DNA of 62,926 nt, counting the filler. It is 7 parts of 7 records of this genome, joined end to end, with 100 filler letters (N's around TTAATTAATTAA, not from the genome) between each part and the next. Parts side by side here need not be neighbours in the genome. Positions count along the whole stretch, not along the records: positions 35,998 to 49,327 come from SRR20825010_2689; 6 more parts are not named here. One strand, given 5' to 3'. Both the position numbers and the translations under genes were made by a program. The notes under the pieces are model-generated. The model made no database searches. It had not been told where the DNA came from and was given only the letters and a program-made list of their open reading frames with translations. Below are positions 8,667-54,756 of this stretch, in pieces; the stretch's first letter is position 1, and each line of letters opens with the position of its first letter.

Positions 8667-8766
8667 NNNNNNNNNNNNNNNNNNNNNNNNNNNNNNNNNN
8701 NNNNNNNNNNTTAATTAATTAANNNNNNNNNNNNNNNNNNNNNNNNNNNNNNNNNNNNNNNNNNNN
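8667..8766. other. Artificial contig spacer
   Basis: 44 N + TTAATTAATTAA (stops in all frames) + 44 N. Confidence 0.99.
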
Positions 8767-11827: not shown

Positions 11828-12616
11828 TCAGCGCGACGGCATACAGAGAGGACGTTCACTGCCGGACTGAATGAAATTCACAATCTCCATCGCATCGGCA
11901 TTGGACGCATGTTTGACAGACGCCGCCGCCACACGTTCGCGCAGGTTGCCCTCACCGTTGAATATGTCTGCATAGGCCGCGCGCAGCCCGCTGATGCGTT
12001 CGCGCGAAAACTGATGACGCTTCAAGCCAACGAGATTAAGGCCAAGCAGGCTGGCGCGGTTGCCGACAACCAGACCGAAGGGAATGATGTCACCTTCCAC
12101 CGCGCTGGCGCCGCCGATAAATGCATTGCGTCCCACGCGGGCAAACTGATGAATGGCCGCACCGCCACCGAAAATGACGTGATCGCCGATCTGGCAATGG
12201 CCAGCCAGCAATGTGGCGCTGGAGATGATAACGCCATCGCCCAGAATGCAGTCATGGCCGATATGGACACTGGAGAGCGCCACGCATTTGTCACCGACCT
12301 TGGTGAGATGACCGCCGCCTTCCGTGCCCGTGTTCATGGTCACATATTCGCGGATCATGGCATCGGCACCAATTTCCAAACGGCTATCCTCGCCGTGGAA
12401 TTTCAGGTCCTGCGGCTGTTGGCCCAACGAAGCGAAGGGAAAAATCTTTGCGCGGGGGCCAATGGTCGTGTGGCCTTCGATGACCACGTGGCTCAGCAAT
12501 TCGCAATCGTCGCCCAGTGTAACATCGGGGCCGATAATGCTGTAGGGACCGACCTTGACGTTTGCCCCGAGCTGAGCTTTCGGATCGACGATCGCGCTGG
12601 GGTGTATTTGTGTCAT
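11828..12616 (-). CDS. lpxA: UDP-N-acetylglucosamine acyltransferase
   Basis: 'IHPSAIV', hexapeptide repeats, 'PQDLKF', 'HIGHDC'. Confidence 0.97.
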   Translation of the reverse strand: MTQIHPSAIVDPKAQLGANVKVGPYSIIGPDVTLGDDCELLSHVVIEGHTTIGPRAKIFPFASLGQQPQDLKFHGEDSRLEIGADAMIREYVTMNTGTEGGGHLTKVGDKCVALSSVHIGHDCILGDGVIISSATLLAGHCQIGDHVIFGGGAAIHQFARVGRNAFIGGASAVEGDIIPFGLVVGNRASLLGLNLVGLKRHQFSRERISGLRAAYADIFNGEGNLRERVAAASVKHASNADAMEIVNFIQSGSERPLCMPSR

Positions 12617-13095
12617 TAAGCTTTGGCCTGATCGATAATCATTGCAGCAAAATCGGCTTCGGCGACTACGGCACCGTCAACCTTGGCTTCGCCTGAGAAT
12701 TTCCAGACAGGGCCGCGGTTCTGCAGCTTGTTGACATGCACATGCATGACATCGCCCGGCACAACCGGTTTGCGGAACTTGGCTTTGTCGATCGACATAA
12801 AATAGACGATCTTGTTTTCGGCACCCTGCCCCAAACCGTTCAGCACAAGCGCGCCTGCGGTCTGCGCCATAGCCTCGACGATCAACACGCCGGGCATGAC
12901 AGGCATGCCGGGGAAGTGACCCTGAAAATGTGGTTCGTTGAACGTCACGTTCTTAATGCCGATCGCACTTTCAGTGCCACGCATTTCCTTGATCCCGTCG
13001 ATCATCAACAGGGGATAGCGATGGGGCAAAAGTTCCATCACGCGTTTGATATCAGCTTCGTCGAGCTTTTCTGAGGACGTATCCGTCTCGCTCAT
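12616..13095 (-). CDS. fabZ: 3-hydroxyacyl-ACP dehydratase
   Basis: 'LPHRYP', 'FQGHFP...[12 protein letters not shown]'. Confidence 0.98.
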
Positions 13096-13147
13096 GCTCT
13101 TGTCCTCGTTCGTAAGGTTATCAAATCAAAAAACAGAAAATCCGGAA

Positions 13148-14203
13148 TTAGTCTTTTGTATCGCTTATCCGCCGTCGCCCCAAATTGCGAATAGCGGCCA
13201 GCTCACGTGCCCATTCTTTTACAGGTCGCGCAGGTGCACCGCCATAGCGTTGACCTGCGGGTACATCATGGGTGACGCCGCTGCGTGCGGCAAGCTGTGC
13301 ACCCGAATTGATTGTAAGATGGCCCGCAACACCTGCCTGAGCGGCCAGCACAACGAAATCGCCCAAATGCGCGCTGCCAGCAATGCCCGCCTGCGAAACA
13401 ATGATGCAATGACGCCCGATCTGCACATTGTGCCCGATCTGAACAAGATTATCGATCTTGGTGCCTTCGCCCACCACAGTGTCGGGCCCTGCGCCGCGAT
13501 CAATGGTGGTGTTGGAGCCTATCTCGACGTGATCCTGAATAATGACCCGGCCCAGCTGCGGCACTTTTTCATGATGCGGCAGGCCCATGGCAAAACCGAA
13601 ACCATCCTGCCCGATGCAGACGCCGGGATGCAGGATGACATGATCACCAATATGGGCATGGCTGATGGCCACATTGGGACCGATGAAACAGTTGCGACCG
13701 ATCGTGCAACCACGGGCAACTGAAACATTGCTGCCGATGACAGTACCGTCACCGATTTCAGTGTTGTCGCCGATTACCGCACCGGCTTCGATGGTGACAT
13801 TCTGACCGATCTTGGCACCAGCGTGGACTGTCGCTCGCTCATGGATGCCACCGGCAGTATCAAATGTCGGCGCGCCGGTTGCCTCCTCGGGATAGAACAT
13901 CTGACTGGCAAGCGCGTAGGCCCGATAGGGATCTTTGGCGACAAGCAATGCCATACCCTTGGGCGCACGATCTGCGTTGCGAGCATGCGTGAGGCAAGCG
14001 CCTGCCGACGAGGCTTCAAAGGCAGTAATGTATTTTGGATTATCGAGAAAACTCAGATCATCCGCACCCGCACTATCAAGCGGGGCAATGTCATGGACAA
14101 GAAAAGCGGCATCTGCTCCCTCACCCAATTCGGCACCCACGCGCTGGGCAATTTCGCCCAGCGCGAAGGGACCTTTATTCGAGAAAAAACGAGGATCAGC
14201 CAT
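13148..14203 (-). CDS. lpxD: UDP-3-O-(3-hydroxyacyl)glucosamine N-acyltransferase
   Basis: 'MADPRFF', 'GQDGFGF', 'TTIDRG', '[12 protein letters not shown]'. Confidence 0.97.
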
Positions 14204-14252
14204 TGCTGTTATTGCGCAGCAGGCCAGCTAAACCTGTCCGCTCTTCCTTTTG

Positions 14253-14939
14253 TTATTTCGGAGCTGCGGGCGCCACGGGCTTCACTTCGACCGTTGTCAA
14301 TTTGGCGTCGAGTTCCTTCACGATTTCGGCGGTCACATCCAGGTCCACCCCACCGGCTACAACATAGGACTGCTCCAGCATGATGTTGGCACCATGGGCT
14401 TCCATGACCTTTGTGAAGATCGGACGCACAGCGGCCTCTACTTTGGCCCGGGCAATGTTAGTACCGTTCTGAAGTGCCATGCCCTTCTGCTGGAAATTAC
14501 GCTGAAGGTCCTGTTCCTTTTTCTGGAAGGCCAAGCCTTTGGCTTCATAGGCCTTGCGGGTGTCGGCTTCCTTCTTCTGGAAGGCCTGAACCTTTTTGGC
14601 AAAATCTTCTTCTTTCAGAAGACCCCGCTGTTCGCCAAGCTTCTTGGCCTCTGCCTGAAGATCGCGTTCCAGCTTGTCGCCTTCGGCGCGGAGCTTTTTG
14701 GCTTCCGATTCCAGACCCGCCTGAGCTTTGTCTCCATCTTCACGCAGCTTTTTTGTGAGCTCCTGAACCTGCGAACGCATGCTCTGGCCCACTTTGGACT
14801 GAGCGAACATCTGTTCGGAATTCACGATAACGATGGTCGCCGGCGTGCCTGCCGAGGCAGCCGAAACGGCAGCAACCGACATATATGATGCGACTGCTGC
14901 TCCGGCCAACACGCGCACAACGAGACGATGCAACTTCAT
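14253..14939 (-). CDS. skp: OmpH/Skp periplasmic chaperone with lengthened coiled-coil arms
   Basis: Lies between bamA and lpxD; signal peptide, 'IVIVN...SKVG', long helical region, C-terminal 'DVTAEIVKELD'. The start at ATG 14939 is inferred. Confidence 0.9.
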   Translation of the reverse strand: MKLHRLVVRVLAGAAVASYMSVAAVSAASAGTPATIVIVNSEQMFAQSKVGQSMRSQVQELTKKLREDGDKAQAGLESEAKKLRAEGDKLERDLQAEAKKLGEQRGLLKEEDFAKKVQAFQKKEADTRKAYEAKGLAFQKKEQDLQRNFQQKGMALQNGTNIARAKVEAAVRPIFTKVMEAHGANIMLEQSYVVAGGVDLDVTAEIVKELDAKLTTVEVKPVAPAAPK

Positions 14940-14995
14940 GGTAGTGGTATCCCCTTTTACTCTCTGAACAGGCGGTCTCTTTTGAGCCGTCAATA

Positions 14996-17332
14996 TTAGA
15001 AGGTTGTACCCGCGCTGAAACGGAAGGCTTCTTTCTGGTCGTAATCTTCTTCAACCAGGACTTTCGAGAAGTCGAGGCGGACAGGACCGAAAGGCGATTT
15101 CCAGTTCACACTGATGCCCGTTGAGACACGCGGCGCAAGGTCATCCTTGATGGTCGTGACACCGGCTTTGTCCGATACTTTACCAACAAGGCCGTAGTCG
15201 AGGAAGAAACTGGTCGAAATGCCCAAAGCTTCAGGAATGCCATTGGGGAAAGACATCTCGGATGTACCGAAAATATAGGTTTCGGCACCCACGGCGTCAT
15301 CCGTCTGAATATCGCGCGGACCGATACCGCCCGACTTGAAGCCACGGAAATCCGAACCGCCCTTGAAGAAACGGTCATTCAGGCGGACATCTTCACCGAT
15401 GCCTTTAATCGTGCCCATGTCGAGGCGCTGGGTGAAGACAAAGTCTTCGGCCACTTCGTAATAGCCATGCATGAGCAATTCGGTGGAGAGGTATTTCACA
15501 GTGCCACCGAGACCGGCAAAGTCCTGACTAAACAGAATGTCGAAGCCGCCTGTGGGATTAACCGGATCGTTTCTGCGGTCGAGGTAATAATCGTAACCGA
15601 CGATCGAACGCGTTTCCTGGCCTTCGGCGGCACGAACGGCAGCGGAGGCTGTCGTGGCGACGTTGAGAATTTCCTCACGGCGCAACTGGTAACGACCGAG
15701 GAAGCGGGCGTCTTCGGAAAGCGGGAAGCCGAAGCGCAGACCAAAACCTGTGGTTCGCGCATCGAACTGGGCCTGATCCTGATAGTCGGTCTCGGTGCCG
15801 AAAATATCGATACCGCCGACGAGATCACGATCAAGGAAATAAGGATCGGTATAGGAGAACTGGATGAGCTGCTGACGCTTGGACAGCGACACGCTGGCAC
15901 CCACCTGCAAACCACGTCCGAGGAAGTTGCGCTCGTTCAGCGACACACCAAGAATGGCACTGTCGACAGACGAAAAGCCGAAGCTGAGAGAGAGCGAACC
16001 TGTGGACTGCTCCTGCACCGCCACATTGATGACTGTCAGGTCGTCACGGCTGCCCGGATCCTGCGAGACGTCGACCTTGCTGAAATATTGCAGGCCACGA
16101 ATGTTTTTCTCGGACTTGTCTAGCAACACCTTGTTGAAAGCGTCACCTTCGACAAGCTGCATCTTGCGACGGATCACGCGATCAAGTGTACGCGAGTTAC
16201 CCGTGATATTGATGCGTTCGACATAAACACGCGGGCCTTCGGTGATGACATAGTTCATGTCGATCACATGCTTCTCGCGGTCACGCGATGCACGCGGACG
16301 AACTTGCGCAAAAGCATAACCTTCGGAACCGGCGGCATAAGTGAGCGAGTCCGTGCTCTTGTCGATCAGAGAGGCGTTATATCGATCTCCCTCAACCGTC
16401 GCGACCAGCTCCTTCAATGCTTCGGGATCGAGCTTATCGAGATTGGTCTTCACCGCGATTTTGCCGAATGTGTAGACCTCACCTTCTTCCACGGTAAAGG
16501 TGATGTTGAAGGCGCTGTTGTCACGTGTGAGATCAGCCACAGCGGAGACGACACGGAAGTCGGCATAGCCACGCGAGAGATAGAAGCGACGCAGCAATTC
16601 GCGGTCATATGTGAGGCGGTCGGGATCGTAGCTGTCGGAAGAGGACAGGAACTTCCACCATGCACTTTCACCGGTCGAAATGGTTTCGCGCAGCTTACTG
16701 TCACTGAAAGCATTATTGCCGAGGAAGCTGATCGAATTGATCTTGGTCTTCTCGCCTTCATTGATTTCGAACACAAGGTCGACACGGTTCTGGGGAAGAC
16801 GAATGACTTTAGGTTCGACTGTCGCCGAGAAGCGACCACCGCGACGGTAAAGCTCGATCACGCGCGTCACGTCTGCCTGCACCTTGGCGCGGGTATAGAT
16901 GGTGCGCGGCTTCAACTGCACTTCGTTATTGAGGTCTTCTTCCTTGATCGCACTGTTGCCTTCATAGGCCACGCGATTGATGATTGGATTTTCAACCACG
17001 GAGACAACCAGCGTGCCCGCATCGTAGCGCATGTTGATGTCGGCAAAGAGACCTGTGCCGAACAAACGCTTGAGGCTTTCGTCGACCTTTACGCCGTCAT
17101 AGGCATCGCCTTCGCGGATGGTCATGTAGGTGAGGACGGTATCACGCTCGATGCGCTGATTGCCTTCGACCTGAATGCGGTTGACCATGAGATCGGCAGC
17201 GTGCGCTTGCGACACGAATGTCGGCACATTGCCCCCTGCGACCTGTCCAAGAAGAAGCATTCCCAAGACAAAGAACGCGGCCTTTCCGCCAAGCGTTGTC
17301 GCCCGCATCACGTACCCACCCAGTCGCATCAT
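14996..17332 (-). CDS. bamA: Outer membrane protein assembly factor BamA
   Basis: POTRA repeats ('IQVEGNQRIE', 'VERINITGNSRT'), 'FRGF' barrel motif, 'WKSPFGP', C-terminal F. The start is uncertain; the ORF extends to 17395. Confidence 0.97.
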   Translation of the reverse strand: MMRLGGYVMRATTLGGKAAFFVLGMLLLGQVAGGNVPTFVSQAHAADLMVNRIQVEGNQRIERDTVLTYMTIREGDAYDGVKVDESLKRLFGTGLFADINMRYDAGTLVVSVVENPIINRVAYEGNSAIKEEDLNNEVQLKPRTIYTRAKVQADVTRVIELYRRGGRFSATVEPKVIRLPQNRVDLVFEINEGEKTKINSISFLGNNAFSDSKLRETISTGESAWWKFLSSSDSYDPDRLTYDRELLRRFYLSRGYADFRVVSAVADLTRDNSAFNITFTVEEGEVYTFGKIAVKTNLDKLDPEALKELVATVEGDRYNASLIDKSTDSLTYAAGSEGYAFAQVRPRASRDREKHVIDMNYVITEGPRVYVERINITGNSRTLDRVIRRKMQLVEGDAFNKVLLDKSEKNIRGLQYFSKVDVSQDPGSRDDLTVINVAVQEQSTGSLSLSFGFSSVDSAILGVSLNERNFLGRGLQVGASVSLSKRQQLIQFSYTDPYFLDRDLVGGIDIFGTETDYQDQAQFDARTTGFGLRFGFPLSEDARFLGRYQLRREEILNVATTASAAVRAAEGQETRSIVGYDYYLDRRNDPVNPTGGFDILFSQDFAGLGGTVKYLSTELLMHGYYEVAEDFVFTQRLDMGTIKGIGEDVRLNDRFFKGGSDFRGFKSGGIGPRDIQTDDAVGAETYIFGTSEMSFPNGIPEALGISTSFFLDYGLVGKVSDKAGVTTIKDDLAPRVSTGISVNWKSPFGPVRLDFSKVLVEEDYDQKEAFRFSAGTTF

Positions 17333-17427
17333 CCCCACACCATCCTCAAGCGCGCCGCACCATGTCGGCGCTGCATTGTTTAGACATATCCCCAAAGGGG
17401 ATTATTCGATATCCGACCTGCACACGA

Positions 17428-18570
17428 TCAGGTGAACAGACGGACCAAATCATTCCAGGTCGCAAAGACCATCAACATCATGACCAGCGCAAGTCCTATG
17501 CGAAAGCCATATTCCTGCATTTTTTGGTCCATGGGACGGCCCCGCACCGCCTCAACCGCATAATACAGAAGGTGCCCACCATCAAGCATGGGCACCGGAA
17601 ACAGATTGAGCAAACCAATGCTCACAGACAAAACAGCTGTCAGGTTCAGCAATGCGACAAAACCAAGTGTGGCGACCTGACCTGACACTTCAGCAATGCG
17701 CAAGGGTCCGCCAAGTTGGCTTGAGTCTTCACGGCCTGCAAGCATCCCGCCGAGATATCCCATAGTACGCGAAATGATGAACCAGGTTTCTTTGGTTCCC
17801 TGCCACACGCCTTCGACAGGATTGGTGCGCACGACGCGGTAGCTGCCCTCGCCCGATTTGCGCTCAAGCCCCAGAAGACCGATGCGCTGCACATTTCCAA
17901 AACCGTCTGTGATTTCTTTCAAACGAGGTGTGGCAGTGAGCGTGATTTCTTTGCCATCGCGCTCCACACCGAAGGACATCTGGACGCCTGCGCTGAAGGA
18001 GACTTCGCGCTGCATATCCTCGAAACCACCAATGGGCGAACCGTTGATCGAGACGACCCGATCTTCCGGCATGAAGCCTGCTTCCTCGGCGGCACTGCCG
18101 GGTTGCACACGCTCGATGACGGCCAGCGCTGTACCCTGCCCGACCACTGAAAAGATGCCGGCGAAAATCACAACAGCGAGAATGAAGTTAGCAATAGGAC
18201 CGGCAGCCACAACGGCGGCGCGCTGGTGCAGCGGCTTGAAGAAAAACAGTCCCTTGCGCTCGCTTTCGGGCACTTTGGCCAGCATATCGGAATCCGGCAC
18301 ACTGGCGGCGTTGTCGTCACCAGCAAATTTCACGTAGCCGCCCAGCGGGATCCAGCTCAGCTTCCAGCGTGTACCGTGCTTGTCATACCGACCGAAGATT
18401 TCGCGGCCAAATCCGATGGAGAATGTATCGACCTTCACACCGCACCAGCGGGCAACCATAAAATGCCCAAGCTCGTGGAAGAAGACGACGACCGTCAGAA
18501 CAAACAGAAAGGGAATGATATAGCCCCCAAGGTTCGCCCCAAAGCCACCGATACTCGAAAGCACGTCCAT
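17428..18570 (-). CDS. rseP: RIP metalloprotease RseP
   Basis: 'HELGH', a PDZ domain, 'NLFPVPMLDGG'. Confidence 0.97.
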   Translation of the reverse strand: MDVLSSIGGFGANLGGYIIPFLFVLTVVVFFHELGHFMVARWCGVKVDTFSIGFGREIFGRYDKHGTRWKLSWIPLGGYVKFAGDDNAASVPDSDMLAKVPESERKGLFFFKPLHQRAAVVAAGPIANFILAVVIFAGIFSVVGQGTALAVIERVQPGSAAEEAGFMPEDRVVSINGSPIGGFEDMQREVSFSAGVQMSFGVERDGKEITLTATPRLKEITDGFGNVQRIGLLGLERKSGEGSYRVVRTNPVEGVWQGTKETWFIISRTMGYLGGMLAGREDSSQLGGPLRIAEVSGQVATLGFVALLNLTAVLSVSIGLLNLFPVPMLDGGHLLYYAVEAVRGRPMDQKMQEYGFRIGLALVMMLMVFATWNDLVRLFT

Positions 18571-18704
18571 ACGACTTAAATTCCCATCTCGCGTCGCGCG
18601 GTGCGACCTGCATAAAGCATCAAAAAATGCCCATCAGGAGGCTTAACCGCGCAATCTCCCTTGCGCCCTTCGGAAAAGGGCGATCATCCAGCCGGAAGAC
18701 TACG

Positions 18705-19928
18705 TCAGCGGCCAGCGAATTGCACCAATTCCTCAGCGCTTAGCCGCGCAATTCGGTCGATTTCGTAAATTTCATCAAGGTCGGAGGGCTCAGTATTGTC
18801 TGCCAGCCCCTGTTCCAGCACTTTTTCGACCGTTTTTGCAATATCGAGGAAGCCGATATGCCCGCCAAGGAAGGCCGCAACGGCGATTTCATTGGCTGCA
18901 TTCAGGATGGTGGGCATCATGCCGCCTGCCTTCAGCGCCTCGCGCGCCAGACGAAGGGCGGGAAAACGCACGGGATCCGGCTCAGCAAAGGTCAAAGCGC
19001 CGATTTCGGCCAGATTGAGCCTCGCACAGGGGGTCGCCATGCGTTCGGGCCAGGCCAGCGCATAGGAAATGGGGGTGCGCATGTCCGGCGCGCCGAGCTG
19101 GGCCAGCACGGAGCCGTCCATATAGGCAACCATGGAATGGATGATGGATTCGGGATGGATGACGATATCCAGCCGCTCCTCACCCACAGGAAAGAGATAA
19201 TGGGCTTCGATCAGCTCAAGTCCCTTGTTCATCAGGGTGGCGCTATCGACCGAGATCTTGGCACCCATGTCCCATTGAGGGTGCGCCACCGCCTGAGCAG
19301 GCGTGGCGCGCGCCATCTCGTCCAAGGTGGCCGTGCGGAACGGGCCGCCCGAGGCTGTGAGGATGATTTTGTCCACGGCATGGAGGCGTTCGGTTTCGAG
19401 CACCTGAAAAATTGCGTTGTGTTCGCTGTCCACCGGCAAAAGAGTGGCACCGGATTTGGCGACCTCGGCCAGAAAGAGCGGGCCGGCCGAGACGAGACAT
19501 TCTTTGTTAGCCAGCGCGACCGAGGCCCCGCGACGCACCGCGGCCAGTGTGGGCGCAAGACCGGCTGTGCCCACTATGCCGGCCATGACCCAATCGGCGG
19601 GCCGAAGCGCGGCCTCGATGACGGCATTGCGACCGGCAGCAACTTCGATGCCCGTGCCTTCCAGTCCGGCTTTCAGATCATCATAAAGCAGCATGTCGCC
19701 GATCACGGCGAATTGGGGCCGCAAGGCGCGGGCCTGCTCGATCAGACGAGCCACATTCTTATGCGCGGTGATGGCAACAAGATCGAAGCGTTCCGGCTCG
19801 CGCGCAATCAGATCAAGGGTGGAAACGCCAATGGAGCCGGTGGAACCGAGAACGGAGACAGTGCGCCGTGCCTGCGCGGCGCGCGGTACAGAAGTGGCTG
19901 CCTCTGAGATATTTGCAGTTACGGCCAA
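18705..19928 (-). CDS. dxr: 1-deoxy-D-xylulose-5-phosphate reductoisomerase
   Basis: 'LGSTGSIG', 'LANKE', '[11 protein letters not shown]', '[11 protein letters not shown]'. The TTG start overlaps the cdsA stop. Confidence 0.98.
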
Positions 19929-24902: not shown

Positions 24903-25002
24903 NNNNNNNNNNNNNNNNNNNNNNNNNNNNNNNNNNNNNNNNNNNNTTAATTAATTAANNNNNNNNNNNNNNNNNNNNNNNNNNNNNNNNNNNNNNNNNN
25001 NN
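24903..25002. other. Artificial contig spacer
   Basis: 44 N + TTAATTAATTAA + 44 N. Confidence 0.99.
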
Positions 25003-29960: not shown

Positions 29961-30060
29961 NNNNNNNNNNNNNNNNNNNNNNNNNNNNNNNNNNNNNNNN
30001 NNNNTTAATTAATTAANNNNNNNNNNNNNNNNNNNNNNNNNNNNNNNNNNNNNNNNNNNN
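29961..30060. other. Artificial contig spacer
   Basis: 44 N + TTAATTAATTAA + 44 N. Confidence 0.99.
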
Positions 30061-35897: not shown

Positions 35898-35997
35898 NNN
35901 NNNNNNNNNNNNNNNNNNNNNNNNNNNNNNNNNNNNNNNNNTTAATTAATTAANNNNNNNNNNNNNNNNNNNNNNNNNNNNNNNNNNNNNNNNNNNN
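35898..35997. other. Artificial contig spacer
   Basis: 44 N + TTAATTAATTAA + 44 N. Confidence 0.99.
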
Positions 35998-36773: not shown

Positions 36774-37493
36774 CTAGTCCAGCAGCACCAGCGTCCTGAT
36801 CAGAAGATCGCCAGAGAGAGCATAGACACCGGTAAGCTCAAGGCCTTGAGGCAGGGCCGGGCCAAGAGTGCGGCGCAAACGCAAGCCTGCACCGCCATCT
36901 TCCGCCCGGATGAGCTCCGCGTCTTCAAAACCCGTATCCACCTCCAGAAACGGGCAAATCGCCTTATACAGGCTCTCCTTTAACGAGAAGACGAGGATTG
37001 TCGCGGTGGCCATATCGCATGCCGGGATGTTTGCGATTGTCCGGCGATCCCGATCCGTCAGGACCAGCTCCGCGATCTCGCTTGCTGCATCCGGATTACC
37101 GGCGTCCTCGAAGTCGAGCCCAACCCCGCGACAGCTCTTCCCGGAAGCGACAACGGCACCCGCCAGCGTCCCTGTATGTGTGATTGAGCCATGATATCCA
37201 GCCGGCCAGACCGGTATGCCTGTACGATCTCGGGCAACGCCTCGCTCTACAGATCCGGCATGCCCCAGAGCATCAGCCGCACACAACCGCCCGGCCAAAA
37301 ACGCCGCCTGCCGGGACGGGACAGCCGCCGACAGATCCTCCGGCACGGCGATACCGGAAGCGGCAGATGCGCTTTCGAAACCAGCCGCCGGATCGAACGG
37401 CCGCTCGACCAGGGAAAGCGGAATATTCAGTACGGGAAACGGCCAGACCGGCGTAACGGAACGCTCCAAACTCATATTCGCTGCCTCAAACAA
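36774..37493 (-). CDS. 4'-phosphopantetheinyl transferase (EntD/Sfp type)
   Basis: 'RQAAFLAGRLCA', 'PVWP..GSITHT', 'GVGLDFE', 'FSLKESLYKA'. Start is either TTG 37493 or ATG 37475. Confidence 0.93.
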   Translation of the reverse strand: MFEAANMSLERSVTPVWPFPVLNIPLSLVERPFDPAAGFESASAASGIAVPEDLSAAVPSRQAAFLAGRLCAADALGHAGSVERGVARDRTGIPVWPAGYHGSITHTGTLAGAVVASGKSCRGVGLDFEDAGNPDAASEIAELVLTDRDRRTIANIPACDMATATILVFSLKESLYKAICPFLEVDTGFEDAELIRAEDGGAGLRLRRTLGPALPQGLELTGVYALSGDLLIRTLVLLD

Positions 37494-37619
37494 ACGTCCC
37501 CTGCAAACACGTCATAAAAATTAGCTTCGCAAGCCATCATTTTGCCTGTTAAACTTTTGCAATTCTTATGTTTTGAGTCAAAATCTCCAGGGAAAACACT
37601 CAGTCCCGAAGGAGGCGGC

Positions 37620-38288
37620 GTGTCAGCAAAAATCATCTCGTTCGTCACCATGAAGGGCGGCAGCGGGAAAAGCACGTCCGCGATGTGCCTTGGCGCATAT
37701 TGGCAGAAATCCGGCATGAAGGTCGGGCTGATCGATGCCGATCCCGCAGGCACGCTGGTGCGTTGGATCGCCGCCGGCACCGACCTTGCGGAAATGCCCG
37801 CCGTCACCGCAGGCCCCGACAGCGTGGATACAGGGATCGACGATTTTCTGGGGCGCGGCCTTGACCGTATCATCATCGACACGCCGGGCTTTCAATCCGA
37901 GGCGACAGATGCCGCTATCCGCCGGGCCGATCTCCTGATCATTCCGATGCGCCCGTCACCGATCGATTATCAGGTTGCCGTGGATAGTGCTGAACATATC
38001 GCGCGCCTCACGGCGGCACCTGTCCGCTTCCTGCTGAGCCAGACGACAAAGGGCAGCGTCATCGCACGGCACATGCGGGCTCAGATGGAAGCTGCAAATG
38101 CACACCCAATGGCAGTAGAGATGAGCGCCAGAGTCGCTTATGGTGAAGCTGCGTTGGCTGGAACGACTCCGAGTTACTATCAACCGCGCGGCGCGGCTGC
38201 CCGGGAGATCGCGGATTTCGCATCCGAAACCGGCACTCTGCTGGGGATGCGACGCAAAAAGGCAAGAAAGGCGAGCGAGCCGGTATGA
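37620..38288 (+). CDS. Orphan ParA/MinD-family ATPase (short, no N-terminal HTH)
   Basis: Deviant Walker A 'KGGSGKST', 'IDADP', 'IIDTPG', 'RVAYGEA'. GTG start after GAAGGAGG. Confidence 0.92.
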   Translation: MSAKIISFVTMKGGSGKSTSAMCLGAYWQKSGMKVGLIDADPAGTLVRWIAAGTDLAEMPAVTAGPDSVDTGIDDFLGRGLDRIIIDTPGFQSEATDAAIRRADLLIIPMRPSPIDYQVAVDSAEHIARLTAAPVRFLLSQTTKGSVIARHMRAQMEAANAHPMAVEMSARVAYGEAALAGTTPSYYQPRGAAAREIADFASETGTLLGMRRKKARKASEPV

Positions 38289-39064
38289 GCAAGAAACTCC
38301 CTGAATTGCAACGCACGGAACGCCCCGGAACGGCGACCGATGCGGCCAGCACCAAACCAGCCGCAACACCGGCGGCCAAACCCACCGCAAAGAAACCCGC
38401 TGCGAGAAAAACCACCCCTGCGTCCAGCGCCAAGCCGGCCGCGCGCAGCACGGCAGCCAAACGTTCGGCGGCCCCGAAACGGGCAGCCTCGGCAACGGCC
38501 GCAAAACCCGAAGCCAGCACCAAGCAGCCTGCCAAGGCCGCTTCATCTTCGTCTTCCGCAACAAAAAAAGCAGGTGAAGTTATGACCACAGAGACAGAAA
38601 CCGCCAAGACAGACACAGTCGTGGCCGATGCCGCCGTCCTTCGCCAAGGGGCCAAAGCCATCGTTTCGAAATATGCCGCATGGTCCACCGCCTTTGGCGT
38701 TCTGCCGGTACCGATCGCTGATACCGTGGGCATCACCGGGACGCAGGTCTCGATGATCGCGGCCCTCTCGAAGCATTATGGCGTGCCGTTCTCCAAGACC
38801 TGGATCCGGACCATCCTGAGCTCCATTCTCGGTGGCGTTGCACCGGGTGCCCTGACAGCCGGTCTCGTCAGCACGGTCTTCAAATCCATGCCGGGCATTG
38901 GCATCGGCGTCGGTTTTGCCGGCATGGCCGCGCTCTCGAACCTTGCGACGCGCACTATCGGCAATCTCTTCATCGACCATTTCGAAGCCGGAGGCGATCT
39001 CTCCGATATCGATACCGATGAGATGAAGGCGTCGCTCTCAGAAGAAATGAAAAAGAAGAAGTAA
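38285..39064 (+). CDS. Protein with an Ala/Lys/Pro/Thr-rich histone-like N-terminal tail and a DUF697/YcjF-like domain
   Basis: ATGA overlap with parA; about 95-aa AKP-rich region; then 'IVSKYAAWS..GVLPVPIAD...Q..MI..LS.HYGVPFS...KSMPGIG...T..IG.LFI.HFE.GG'. Confidence 0.8.
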   Translation: MSKKLPELQRTERPGTATDAASTKPAATPAAKPTAKKPAARKTTPASSAKPAARSTAAKRSAAPKRAASATAAKPEASTKQPAKAASSSSSATKKAGEVMTTETETAKTDTVVADAAVLRQGAKAIVSKYAAWSTAFGVLPVPIADTVGITGTQVSMIAALSKHYGVPFSKTWIRTILSSILGGVAPGALTAGLVSTVFKSMPGIGIGVGFAGMAALSNLATRTIGNLFIDHFEAGGDLSDIDTDEMKASLSEEMKKKK

Positions 39065-39089: not shown

Positions 39090-39124
39090 AAAAGGGCCGC
39101 TACGTCATCGCAGCGGCCCTTTTT
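39090..39124. terminator. Bidirectional intrinsic terminator
   Basis: AAAAGGGCCGCT...AGCGGCCCTTTTT. Confidence 0.85.
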
Positions 39125-39141: not shown

Positions 39142-41109
39142 CTAGAACGTCAGGCCAAGCGCCGCATTCTCCGCCCGCCCCTTGGAGCCGGCGAAGCTGT
39201 GCAACCCGGCATCGAGATCGTGCCGCGTGCCTTCCATGACCAGTGACATGATGCGGCCGCGCTCCTCGAACAGCAGTCCGAGTTCCTGCAGATAGGCGAG
39301 GCTGTCCGCATTGCTCTCCCGGATTTTGCCGATGGCCTGTGGTGTTTCCAGCGCACGCAACAGCGCGACATCCGGCTCGTCCAGCTCATGCTCAACCTTG
39401 TGCCCTGTCCGCTGATCCTCGACCAACCAGCCGTAATCGTCCTGAACCAGCCGGAGACGCGGCGCACCGGCGGCAGATTCCCAGCGGGTACGCCAGCGCG
39501 CCACACCCTCGCGCAGATGCGCCAGATGTTCCGCGAGGTCGACCTGATAGGGCGCGTCGATATTCCGGTCTCGGAAATAGTAGGCCATGTTCCAGACCAC
39601 ATCCTCTTCGAACGGATAGTTCAGCTCGTGATAGTCCAGCGGCTCCAGATCCAGCGCGAAGCTGTCTGCCTGGGTGAAATACGGGCTGAACCGGTCAAAC
39701 CGGACCGGAAAGACGCCGGAAGGCGGCGGCAAATGGGTCAGCCGCGGCAAGTTCTCCCGATACATCTCGAAGGTCTCGGCAGACTCCCCAGGAAAGCCGA
39801 CCAGAAGATTCCAGACCGGCTTCACCCCGGCAGCCGCACAATCCGACAGGAAGCGGATATTGTTGAAGGCCGTCGTGCCCTTGCGCATCAGCTTCAGAGT
39901 CTCGGTCGCGATGGATTCCACCCCCGGCTGCACCTCGACCACCCGCGCTTTGGCCAGCGTGTCGAGCTGCTCGCGGGAAAGGTCCGCCTTCACCTCGTAG
40001 AACAGGGTGACATGGTCCGGCACCTTCAGGTCCGGCAACAGCTGCTCGGTGTAGGATTTCGGGATGATGTTATCGACGCTGGCGAACCGGGTAACACGGT
40101 CCGAATATTTATCGACCATTTCCTGAATGGTCTTGCGGGCCAGCTCGACCCCCATCTCGCGGAATTTCATCGTCGCACCGTTGAGGCCGCAGAAGGTGCA
40201 GTGTGCCTTCTCCCCCCACCAGCAGCCGCGCGATGTCTCGAACAGAAGCTCCACCTCGTCCTTGCGGTGATCGCCGAAATGACGCTCGTAGGACTCCAGA
40301 TAGACCTCGTAATCCAGCGGCACGTCGCTGTTGAGCGAACGCTCCGGGCCGTTGACGGCAACCCCGTCGAGTTGATCCTCCGCCCGTGCATCGCTTGGCC
40401 GCTTCGGCCTCACCGCCGGGTCCATCGCCGTAATCGACCGGCTGTTCGATTTGCTGAAAATACCGTCCAGCTTCGACATGGAGGCCGTATCGCCATCCTC
40501 CGCCGCCTTCAGGAACTTCGGGAAATTGACCAGCGCATGCCCCGAAAACACGTAATCGATCCAGGGCACGTTATTCACGATCTCGATACCCATGGTGCCT
40601 TCGCAATTCGCGCCGCCCATGATCACGATCGCCTTTGAGCCGATCTCCTTCAGGCGGCGCGCCAGTGCGAAACTCGGCATGTTCTGGAAGAACATCGAGG
40701 TCACGCCGACAATATCCGCGTCCGCCAGCCCGTGCTGCTCGATCATCCGGTCGATGATGCCTGGCAGATCCGCCCGGACCGGGGCAAGTTCCCGGTGATA
40801 GCGCTCAACCTGCGCTTCGCCGAAATGGTGCAGATAGCGGGCGAAATAGGCTTCGGTATTGTCGCCATGCTCCGGAAAAGCGGCATGGCGGAACAGCCAT
40901 TCGCCAAATCCGCAGGTGTGCCCGGCGAGGCTTTCCGAGATCCATGCATAAAGATCCGGGCCGACCAGCCCGCCGAAATCATGGTTCAGATAGTGAATGC
41001 TGGTTTCCGCCCCGGCGCATTTTTCCGCGATGATGGTTTCCAGCTGATGCAGAGCGATCGACGGGATCTGCAGCGACGAAAAAGGCATGTTCACGAGCGC
41101 GATACGCAT
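39142..41109 (-). CDS. Cobalamin-dependent (class B) radical SAM C-methyltransferase of the RiPP-maturation (PoyB/PoyC-like) type
   Basis: 'MRIALVNMPF...PSIAL', B12-binding-like region 'IVGVTSMFFQN...MGGANC', Cx7Cx2C motif 'SRGCWWGEKAHCTFCGLNG', 'VQPGVES', 'RFDRFSPYF'. Confidence 0.88.
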   Translation of the reverse strand: MRIALVNMPFSSLQIPSIALHQLETIIAEKCAGAETSIHYLNHDFGGLVGPDLYAWISESLAGHTCGFGEWLFRHAAFPEHGDNTEAYFARYLHHFGEAQVERYHRELAPVRADLPGIIDRMIEQHGLADADIVGVTSMFFQNMPSFALARRLKEIGSKAIVIMGGANCEGTMGIEIVNNVPWIDYVFSGHALVNFPKFLKAAEDGDTASMSKLDGIFSKSNSRSITAMDPAVRPKRPSDARAEDQLDGVAVNGPERSLNSDVPLDYEVYLESYERHFGDHRKDEVELLFETSRGCWWGEKAHCTFCGLNGATMKFREMGVELARKTIQEMVDKYSDRVTRFASVDNIIPKSYTEQLLPDLKVPDHVTLFYEVKADLSREQLDTLAKARVVEVQPGVESIATETLKLMRKGTTAFNNIRFLSDCAAAGVKPVWNLLVGFPGESAETFEMYRENLPRLTHLPPPSGVFPVRFDRFSPYFTQADSFALDLEPLDYHELNYPFEEDVVWNMAYYFRDRNIDAPYQVDLAEHLAHLREGVARWRTRWESAAGAPRLRLVQDDYGWLVEDQRTGHKVEHELDEPDVALLRALETPQAIGKIRESNADSLAYLQELGLLFEERGRIMSLVMEGTRHDLDAGLHSFAGSKGRAENAALGLTF

Positions 41110-41130: not shown

Positions 41131-42126
41131 CTATTCTGCCGCTCCGGCAATGTCAGTCAGTTCCGAGTTCATCCGCCCCATACTGACGAGAACCCGGCGC
41201 GAACCGGTGAAGGGGCGCCTCGCATGCGAGGCCAGCATGTTATCGACGATCATCACGTCGCCCGCCTGCCAGTCAAACTGGCGGGCCTCCGCCTGGAACG
41301 CATCGCGCACCCGGCTGAGAATTTCCAGCTCAATCGGCGCGCCGTCTCCGTAACGCGCGTCGCGCGGCAGGCTGTCCTCGCCGAAAATATCGATCAGGTC
41401 TTCCAGAACATCTTCACCGAGAGCCGACGGGTGAAAGAGCTGCGCCTGGTTGAACCAGAGCCGCTCCCCCGTAACCGGATGACGCGCCGTTCCCTGACAG
41501 GTCTGCGCGGTACGGAGATGCCCCTCCGGCGTCCATTCGAAGTCGATATCGTTGGCCCGGCAAAATGCCTCGACCTCGCCCCGGTCTTCTGTCTGGAACA
41601 CCGTTTTCCAGTCGAGGTCGAAGCCTTCGTGATAATTCCGGACATAGCGCACGCCGCGGCGCTCGACCTCGTCCAGAACCTCGTCACCGAGGGCACGGGT
41701 CACCGCACGAACGTCCGCGACCGGGGTCTGCCCGCCAGTCTCCGAGGGTTTGATACAGCAGAATACCAGCCGCAGCGGCCAGTCCCGCTGATAGGCATTC
41801 TCGCAATGCATCAGGATCTCTTCCGTCGCCGGATATTCGGTCGCCGTCATGATGCCTTCGAGCACTTCGGTGCGCGGGGTCGAGCGATAGACATAATGCG
41901 CCGGCCGCCCCACCAGCAGATCCCGGACAGCGGGGAAATCCGCTTCCGCCGAAATGCCAATACCGCGCAAGACGACAACGGGGTGTTCCCGCGCCAGCGT
42001 CTCGATCGCGGGCAGGTTATCGGACACCCATGCTGGCGCGTTGCCGCTCTCGCCGTTCGGCTCCACGATGACAGCGAAATCCTCGCCGTCAAACAGCCGC
42101 CGGACGGATCCTTCGATCTCAGCCAT
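41131..42126 (-). CDS. TauD/TfdA family Fe(II)/2-oxoglutarate dioxygenase (SyrP-like)
   Basis: 'YVYRSTPRT', 'TEYP', HxE motif 'HCENAY', 'GGQTP', 'WFNQAQLFH', '[12 protein letters not shown]'. Confidence 0.92.
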
Positions 42127-49327: not shown

Positions 49328-49427
49328 NNNNNNNNNNNNNNNNNNNNNNNNNNNNNNNNNNNNNNNNNNNNTTAATTAATTAANNNNNNNNNNNNNNNNN
49401 NNNNNNNNNNNNNNNNNNNNNNNNNNN
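49328..49427. other. Artificial contig spacer
   Basis: 44 N + TTAATTAATTAA + 44 N. Confidence 0.99.
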
Positions 49428-54656: not shown

Positions 54657-54756
54657 NNNNNNNNNNNNNNNNNNNNNNNNNNNNNNNNNNNNNNNNNNNN
54701 TTAATTAATTAANNNNNNNNNNNNNNNNNNNNNNNNNNNNNNNNNNNNNNNNNNNN
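54657..54756. other. Artificial contig spacer
   Basis: 44 N + TTAATTAATTAA + 44 N. Confidence 0.99.

Follow-up and report, generated by a model that had tools for sequence, protein, structure and literature searches.

A plasmid-type ParA coupled to a tagged DUF697 protein: a candidate module for organising membrane export complexes near natural-product gene clusters

A stretch of DNA of 62,926 nucleotides, referred to here in its entirety as the window, carries the gene for a small ATPase of the ParA/MinD family that is coupled to a gene for a protein with a DUF697 domain, within a nonribosomal peptide synthetase (NRPS) cluster. This partner protein begins with a short basic peptide, the tag, that is present in the ParA-linked DUF697 proteins of all 88 unique pairs compared and missing from DUF697 proteins encoded without ParA. 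We judge the chances to be about even that the two proteins form a cargo-organising module of the ParA/MinD type, in which a plasmid-type ParA has been recruited to arrange a membrane export complex that contains DUF697 proteins. The window consists of seven unrelated contigs joined end to end by six N44-TTAATTAATTAA-N44 spacers, so that gene order across the spacers is without meaning; the gene pair lies on the contig at 35998-49327 (13.3 kb, 63.5% GC overall), and the host of its NRPS cluster is a Nisaea-like organism. Statements about whole genomes rest on the genomes of relatives.

Results

The N-terminal tag of the partner follows ParA

The partner gene (38285-39064, + strand, 259 residues) overlaps the stop codon of the ParA gene by ATGA, and its product comprises the tag, a disordered linker and a helical DUF697 domain (Table 1). 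This anatomy, and the placing of the pair between a 4'-phosphopantetheinyl transferase (PPTase) gene and a radical S-adenosylmethionine (SAM) gene, had been proposed in a first-pass annotation of the DNA and hold, as do the coordinates of both genes. In a sample built from DUF697 (52 loci with 68 DUF697 places, retrieved with the partner alignment), the N-terminal motif [KR][KR]x[LF]P was present in all 36 places with ParA directly upstream and in none of the 31 ParA-less places, one further place being cut by a contig end. Variants of the tag include MSKKLPEL.., MNKKKLPKAI.. and VSKKTLPKAI.., also summarised as KKxLPK. Both tag and linker are missing from the a-type DUF697 protein of a Thiodiazotropha locus (L013), which has no ParA and is 62% identical in the domain. 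The basic N-terminal peptide, to which the first-pass annotation had drawn attention, thus behaves as a ParA-specific tag.

A second sample was built from ParA and comprised the best 80 of at least 542 confirmed candidate stretches. Among these 80, a DUF697 gene lies downstream of ParA in all 60 loci with at least 37% ParA identity, and the tag is present in all 60 (51 by script, nine more by inspection); the other 20, whose ParA matches are weaker or partial, have no DUF697 gene downstream. Each of four genomes searched for the tag pattern has it exactly once. In seven close sequences, residues 1-14 are invariant save at positions 9 and 12. At the level of codons, pairwise differences over this stretch comprise 162 synonymous versus 45 nonsynonymous changes, and Leu5, Leu8 and Arg13 are each encoded by 4-5 different codons. 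As judged from these codons, the tag is under protein-level selection.

ParA-linked copies occur in both parts of a FastTree of DUF697 domains, 65 of 84 in one half, so that the tag is not tied to a single DUF697 lineage. A Pseudolabrys-type subgroup (L079, L081-L083, L085, L087, L088, L091, L106, L108, L109, L111-L114, L117, L120 and others) has a tagged DUF697 protein nearer to the exporter-adjacent paralogue, with bit scores of ~140-150 to that paralogue versus ~90, which suggests that two DUF697 lineages bear the tag. DUF697 genes near NRPS, ATP-binding cassette (ABC) exporter or SPFH genes in Bacteroidota (L016, L021 and L032; Balneolales, Chitinophagales) have another conserved basic N-terminus, ..KKKRSRLYQS.., and no ParA was detected in their flanks; this N-terminus may be a tag for another partner.

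The two genes are coupled and the partner is full length

The junction between the genes is kept in the 33 pairs compared, with a 4-nt overlap in 26, a spacer of 2-5 nt in six and one of 54 nt in the last; the pair is a conserved module, translationally coupled as had been supposed. One apparent ParA-DUF697 fusion, in a metagenome bin (L038, 9158-10396, 412 residues), was rejected: it depends on one extra base ~55 nt before the ParA stop, which is probably an assembly error and not a Rosetta-stone fusion. The partner has full-length relatives in Nisaea denitrificans (72% identity), in three Nisaea bins, of which one is a complete chromosome of 4.58 Mb, and in two further bins, one from Rhodospirillaceae and the other labelled Phycisphaerales. 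The block of PPTase, ParA-partner and radical SAM-TauD-NRPS genes is syntenic in the close-relative loci as far as their contig ends, and also in L014. A gammaproteobacterial full-length partner (P0008, source label Endothiovibrio diazotrophicus; 52% identity) keeps the tag (MSKRLPKLRRTHRP) and has a linker that is Pro/Thr/Glu-rich, not basic.

Public annotation starts the partner at the internal Met100 (38582), giving 160-residue forms, one of them identical to that of the window; because the protein is truncated in this way, the tag is hidden. Contigs from RNA libraries of two studies span the ParA/partner junction (38204-38515) with zero mismatches and also cover the linker, leaving parts of ParA (37888-38131) uncovered, a gap that does not argue for absence; they fit the long, co-transcribed form. 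A 12-nt in-frame insertion in the linker, at window position 38367, was seen in such contigs from a related strain (runs X14 and X17). The GC content of third codon positions in the linker is 0.60 in the reading frame versus 0.74 in another frame, a measure that is uninformative for an Ala/Lys/Pro-rich stretch, and the coding claim therefore rests on codon usage in the tag together with the in-frame indels through which the linker varies in sequence and length among the seven close sequences.

The partner has a DUF697 body and a linker of variable charge

Residues 118-257 of the partner match Pfam family PF05128 (DUF697; E 2.4e-10, 40.8 bits against a cut-off of 27.7), and the same Pfam search gave no ribbon-helix-helix or helix-turn-helix (HTH) match, DUF697 being the only family found. 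An AlphaFold2 model built on a 22-row alignment has residues 1-105 disordered and residues 106-258 folded as six helices, with a mean predicted local distance difference test score (pLDDT) of 61.9. A Foldseek search of the Protein Data Bank (PDB) with this model found no match at E <= 0.001, and the best VIA-align hit in a wide search, a 64-residue match of a helical hairpin at Z 8.0, is within background for helical models. The domain had been described from the outset as a hydrophobic DUF697 domain; the family assignment stands, and the hydrophobicity is only moderate, the maximum 19-residue Kyte-Doolittle mean being 1.71.

Between tag and domain, the 102 residues from 15 to ~116 are 31% Ala, 14% Lys, 17% Thr, 12% Ser and 9% Pro, with a net charge of +11. 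Such a basic linker (+9 to +15, isoelectric point 10.4-11.2) is confined to five Nisaea-clade sequences, those of the window and of four Nisaea loci. The other 28 partners measured have linkers of net charge +1 to -16, 27 of the 28 at 0 or below, one row having been dropped because it failed the domain-boundary rule. The linker is thus acidic in most lineages, which rules out as the conserved function a histone-like nucleoid tether, as which the Ala/Lys/Pro-rich stretch had been read in the first-pass annotation. The partners have in common the tag, a spacer and the DUF697 domain.

The ATPase is intact and related to plasmid ParA proteins

ParA starts with GTG, 6-7 nt downstream of AGGAGG. The protein is short, lacks an N-terminal HTH and has a basic C-terminus (RRKKARKASEPV), all of which bears out its first description, as does the KGGSGKST motif within its deviant Walker A sequence MKGGSGKST. 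Pfam matches above cut-offs are to AAA_31, VirC1 (44.6 bits), MipZ and CbiA; with the DUF697 match in the partner, profile searches support both domain assignments. Across 22 ParA sequences, down to 39% identity, Walker A residues K12, G13, G14, S15, G16, K17 and T19 are invariant, as are D39-A40-D41-P42, I86-D87 and PSP-D, and GGSGK(S/T) is kept. The signature lysine, the Walker A' and switch aspartates and the Walker B aspartate that define the ParA/MinD family are all present. The C-termini of these proteins finish in short hydrophobic-basic stretches (GILGIKRAA; TLLGMRRKKARKA).

The nearest solved structures, each at E 6.5e-18, are ParF (4dzz) and a 214-residue ParA (5u1g). All 203 of the 203 positions of the plasmid model NF041546 are aligned, with a score of 137.6 bits that is under the cut-off of 180, and the best plasmid ParAs are 31-36% identical; equivalog models for VirC1 (46.9 versus 313 bits) and BcsQ (48 versus 157.85 bits) stay far under their cut-offs. 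In a quick maximum-likelihood tree of 96 rows, 80 DUF697-linked ParAs and two plasmid ParAs (from Mesorhizobium and Rickettsia) form one group with 98% support in the Shimodaira-Hasegawa-like approximate likelihood ratio test, a three-way split within the group being unresolved. The small partners of these two plasmid ParAs begin MSKQLESIMKRMP and MNSKKLDSILKNIP, and Xanthomonas ParG begins MSKKIQIGGKP. To judge from these starts, the DUF697 partners seem to owe their tag to partition adaptors, although with only four plasmid partners compared this is a lead rather than a count.

Most pairs lie near megasynthase or exporter genes

After removal of duplicates there were 88 unique ParA-DUF697 pairs, of which 48 had at least 8 kb on both sides. 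Within ~10 kb of these 48 pairs, NRPS condensation or adenylation domains were found at 17, a ketosynthase at two, and a SyrD/PvdE-type ABC exporter or an SPFH protein at 28, so that 39 had at least one of these markers. None of the 20 control ParA relatives without DUF697, all from the best 80 of at least 542 stretches, had any marker, and neither did any of the 13 among them with full flanks. In complete form the arrangement is seen in the Nisaea chromosome, where the cluster starts with PPTase, ParA-DUF697a, radical SAM, TauD and two NRPS genes (2343 and 4239 residues) and continues with thioesterase, porin and autotransporter lipase genes before a second DUF697 gene (DUF697b), an ABC exporter and an SPFH gene. 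The pair and this DUF697b-ABC-SPFH cassette therefore sit on either side of the same NRPS genes, and because the cassette lies so far across them, flanks of 10 kb undercount the link. On Tistrella pTM3 and Skermanella pSM-2, an untagged DUF697 gene stands with genes for a peptide ABC exporter, an SPFH protein, a type II thioesterase and NRPSs.

The first-pass annotation had raised the prospect that homologous pairs go with biosynthetic clusters rather than with replicons. The pairs are indeed chromosomal (relatives' loci lie in the 4.58-Mb complete chromosome and in a 2.0-Mb scaffold) and near NRPS, polyketide synthase (PKS) or exporter genes rather than replication genes, an expectation that holds for the 39 pairs above but not for the other nine. 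The reported lack of ParB and Rep genes carries little weight on a contig of 13.3 kb; it was confirmed instead on the complete chromosome of a relative, ParB_N genes lying >680 kb from the pair or on other contigs.

The contig and its other genes

The PPTase gene is divergent from ParA and forms the left edge of the conserved block. The region between them is AT-rich relative to the contig, as had been noted; no repeat arrays or families were found in it upstream of ParA, and a scan for the sigma-70 consensus found no promoter site there. The scan also missed, owing to its loop rule, the hairpin downstream of the partner gene, which has 15-nt arms that are 93% complementary (-23.4 kcal/mol, z -3.3) and is likely a bidirectional terminator that closes the two-gene operon.

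The B12 radical-SAM enzyme scores 492.6 bits against TIGR03975 ('RiPP maturation C-methyltransferase'; cut-off 281.85). Its gene belongs to the NRPS operon and adjoins that of the TauD-type dioxygenase, and its conservation across all relatives is 74-98%; the two enzymes are an unusual tailoring pair for a nonribosomal peptide. The NRPS has two condensation, two adenylation and three carrier domains and one thioesterase, the three carrier domains reflecting a tandem T-T after the first module. The contig also holds a truncated M20 peptidase gene.

Table 1. Features of the window and their positions
Feature	Position	Strand	Remarks
N spacers	8667-8766, 24903-25002, 29961-30060, 35898-35997, 49328-49427, 54657-54756		
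Sfp/EntD-type PPTase	36774-37493	-	Pfam 4PPT_N + ACPS; synteny in L001-L005
Divergent intergenic region PPTase/ParA	37494-37619		126 nt, 43.7% GC; AGGAGG ahead of ParA start
ParA, small ParA/MinD-family ATPase, ParF-like, 222 residues	37620-38288	+	ATPase motifs all intact
Partner, N-terminal tag (residues 1-14)	38285-38326	+	MSKKLPELQRTERP; presumed ParA-docking peptide
Partner, disordered Ala/Lys/Thr/Ser/Pro linker (residues 15-105)	38327-38599	+	variable length and sequence
Partner, all-helical DUF697 domain (residues 106-259)	38600-39064	+	moderately hydrophobic, Gly-rich core
GC-rich hairpin	39090-39123		A and T runs on its sides; between convergent partner and radical-SAM genes
B12 radical-SAM C-methyltransferase	39142-41109	-	convergent with partner
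TauD-type dioxygenase	41131-42126	-	
Two-module NRPS with thioesterase, 2343 residues	42119-49150	-	

Discussion

Partners of ParA/MinD ATPases contact the ATPase through a positively charged, disordered N-terminus and bind the cargo with the remainder, according to excerpts of PMC10241942, and our reading of the pair follows this published rule. The ATPase would be a small ParF-like (type Ib) ParA re-used from plasmid partition, and the partner would not be a DNA-binding centromere protein but a 14-residue basic tag joined by a disordered spacer of ~40-110 residues to a helical DUF697 domain. The domain would lie in or on a membrane complex that contains the second, untagged DUF697 paralogue, the SyrD/PvdE-type peptide ABC exporter and an SPFH/prohibitin scaffold, all of which accompany NRPS and PKS clusters. 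The tag would reach ATP-bound ParA dimers and stimulate their ATPase, and the complex would thereby be spaced, placed or inherited along the cell, on a matrix that may be either nucleoid or membrane. In a more specific version, which we put forward only tentatively, a ParA ratchet on nucleoid or membrane would space and hand down platforms for natural-product export and assembly, its tag having been grafted from a plasmid-partition adaptor onto a membrane protein; such platforms would comprise the DUF697 proteins, the peptide ABC exporter, an SPFH microdomain scaffold and docked megasynthases.

Several known systems share features with the pair. ParF-ParG of type Ib (TP228) and the small ParA/ribbon-helix-helix pairs of alphaproteobacterial plasmids likewise have a small ParA without N-terminal HTH in a tightly coupled two-gene operon and a partner with a basic N-terminal tag, which in two of the four plasmid partners compared (Mesorhizobium and Rickettsia) resembles MSKKLPELQR; unlike theirs, the body of the partner here is DUF697 and not a DNA-binding fold, there are no centromere repeats, and the genes are chromosomal and stand among biosynthetic and export genes. 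A ParA gene beside that of an adaptor with a charged disordered N-terminus is also found, in the excerpts of PMC10241942, for McdA-McdB of carboxysomes and for ParC-ParP and PpfA-TlpT of chemoreceptor arrays. An adjacent adaptor with a charged, predicted-disordered, ParA-specific N-terminal peptide, the mark of McdAB-like systems, is present here too, but the adaptors are unrelated in sequence, and a membrane complex for export or biosynthesis is presumed as the cargo. In YcjX-YcjF of E. coli, a DUF697 protein is encoded beside, and conserved with, a P-loop NTPase (excerpts of PMC3041696), yet YcjX is not a ParA/MinD ATPase, the YcjF-type proteins met with here are without the tag, and the context is one of stress and psp genes. 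VirC1, which places a secretion substrate and whose role is described in the excerpts of PMC10241942, and BcsQ are ParA/MinD proteins that act on envelope machines; their equivalog cut-offs are far from reached by our ParA, and their partners differ. The cassette of DUF697b, a small protein, a SyrD/PvdE-type ABC exporter and SPFH on Tistrella pTM3 and Skermanella pSM-2 shares with the pair the same DUF697 family (35-50% identity) and the same clusters, including that of Nisaea; its DUF697b copy differs in having no tag, long linker or ParA. To our knowledge this cassette is undescribed in print. BcsQ, for its part, places a synthase complex.

The cargos of ParA/MinD proteins listed in the excerpts of PMC10241942 are DNA, the divisome, microcompartments, flagella, chemoreceptor arrays and conjugation machinery; the word 'nonribosomal' occurs 0 times in that paper, and a membrane export or biosynthesis complex is not on their list. 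We found no publication linking DUF697 or these clusters to ParA, which agrees with the early remark that no such system had been described for an NRPS, and the supplementary neighbourhood tables of PMC10241942 might still hold such pairs. Systems of a ParA with a tagged adaptor are known; what is new is the family to which the adaptor belongs, the cargo presumed for it and the route by which the pair evolved.

A number of observations weigh against the proposal. Nine of the 48 pairs have no NRPS, ketosynthase, exporter or SPFH marker within ~10 kb, and the neighbours of one stand-alone pair (L070) are unrelated housekeeping-type genes, such as those for a P-type ATPase, a UvrD helicase and a cyclase. 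In five genomes with stand-alone pairs no condensation domain passes the Pfam cut-off, and in two pair-bearing genomes (G006 and G009), both metagenome bins that may be incomplete, no second DUF697 gene was found. Nineteen of the 84 ParA-linked DUF697 copies nest in the exporter-type clade, with no clean split. The sample is phylogenetically lopsided, 72 of the 80 ParAs in the tree belonging to a single clade in which Xanthobacteraceae/Nitrobacteraceae and alphaproteobacterial bins without classification predominate, and the counts are therefore of species and not of independent events. Membrane insertion of DUF697 is a prediction, with the hydropathy maximum of 1.71 and pLDDT <50 at residues 185-199; the RNA-library contigs may contain DNA and prove neither transcript nor translation; and the binding of the tag to ParA is something that we infer.

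The stand-alone pairs bear on what the cargo may be. They are frequent in a ParA subgroup whose partners start MTRKPLPKAI. In one of the five genomes without a condensation domain over the cut-off (L072), a methyltransferase and a type I PKS of 2549 residues (12208-19857, - strand) are encoded 1 kb from the pair; the domain order of this PKS is KS-AT-DH-ER-KR-ACP, and its C-terminus has a weak condensation-like stretch. The DUF697b-ABC-SPFH cassette is found elsewhere in all four stand-alone genomes checked (L143-L146, in G003, G007, G005 and G004, respectively), with no NRPS or PKS match in 20 kb. The cassette occurs, then, in genomes without a condensation domain and is not restricted to megasynthase clusters, and the steadiest companion of the pair is the DUF697/exporter/SPFH set rather than a synthetase. 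The NRPS, which the first-pass annotation had named among the possible cargos, is not a constant companion, and the synthetase is therefore a less likely cargo than a membrane or export complex that contains DUF697.

The same neighbourhoods, and the same co-occurrence of tag and ParA, would also be seen if ParA worked as a switch in the manner of MinD, BcsQ or FlhG, ATP-bound ParA binding the membrane or the complex and gating exporter assembly, polar placement or activity; there would then be no nucleoid ratchet, and the tagged DUF697 protein would be membrane receptor and activator. The hydrophobic-basic stretches at the ParA C-termini could be amphipathic, the weak match to BcsQ models points the same way, and most lineages have an acidic linker, although it is the linker that would have to extend to the nucleoid. 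Yet the C-terminal stretch is short and poorly conserved, a membrane-targeting helix there is hypothetical, and the nearest relatives are partition ParAs of the ParF type. ParF-type plasmid partition ParAs act on DNA-bound matrices or polymers, and on balance we find the switch a possible but doubtful explanation.

A general module for membrane homeostasis or stress, akin to YcjX-YcjF and only loosely tied to natural-product clusters because these load the membrane, would account for stand-alone pairs in genomes without an NRPS, and it has a precedent in the pairing of DUF697 with a P-loop NTPase in the enterobacterial ycjXF unit, which adjoins psp genes in many species (excerpts of PMC3041696). 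It seems unlikely given that 39 of 48 pairs versus none of 13 controls are near megasynthase or exporter genes, that the tag resembles those of partition adaptors and that ParA is unrelated to YcjX. Most improbable of all is that the pair serves, or in a decayed form once served, to partition the DNA of some mobile element or genomic island bearing the cluster: the full-length alignment to NF041546 at 137.6 bits, plasmid ParAs of up to 36% identity (31-36% for the best) and the basic Nisaea linker are what such a system would lead one to expect, but the model score is under the cut-off of 180, the partner has DUF697 in place of a ribbon-helix-helix or HTH, the region ahead of ParA has no repeat arrays, relatives' loci are part of a complete chromosome and a 2.0-Mb scaffold with ParB_N genes >680 kb off or on other contigs, and 88 genomes have retained the pair, its motifs intact.

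If a re-used ParA does organise a DUF697-containing export complex, secondary-metabolite export or assembly complexes would be a new class of ParA cargo, and the pair would offer a genetic handle on the long-standing question of how bacterial megasynthases and their exporters are arranged within the cell, and at which sites. DUF697 and the exporter-SPFH cassette would gain a first functional context, and the case would show how the mere transfer of a short tag can direct a partition ATPase from plasmids to a new target. The pair could also serve as a marker for cluster-mining tools.

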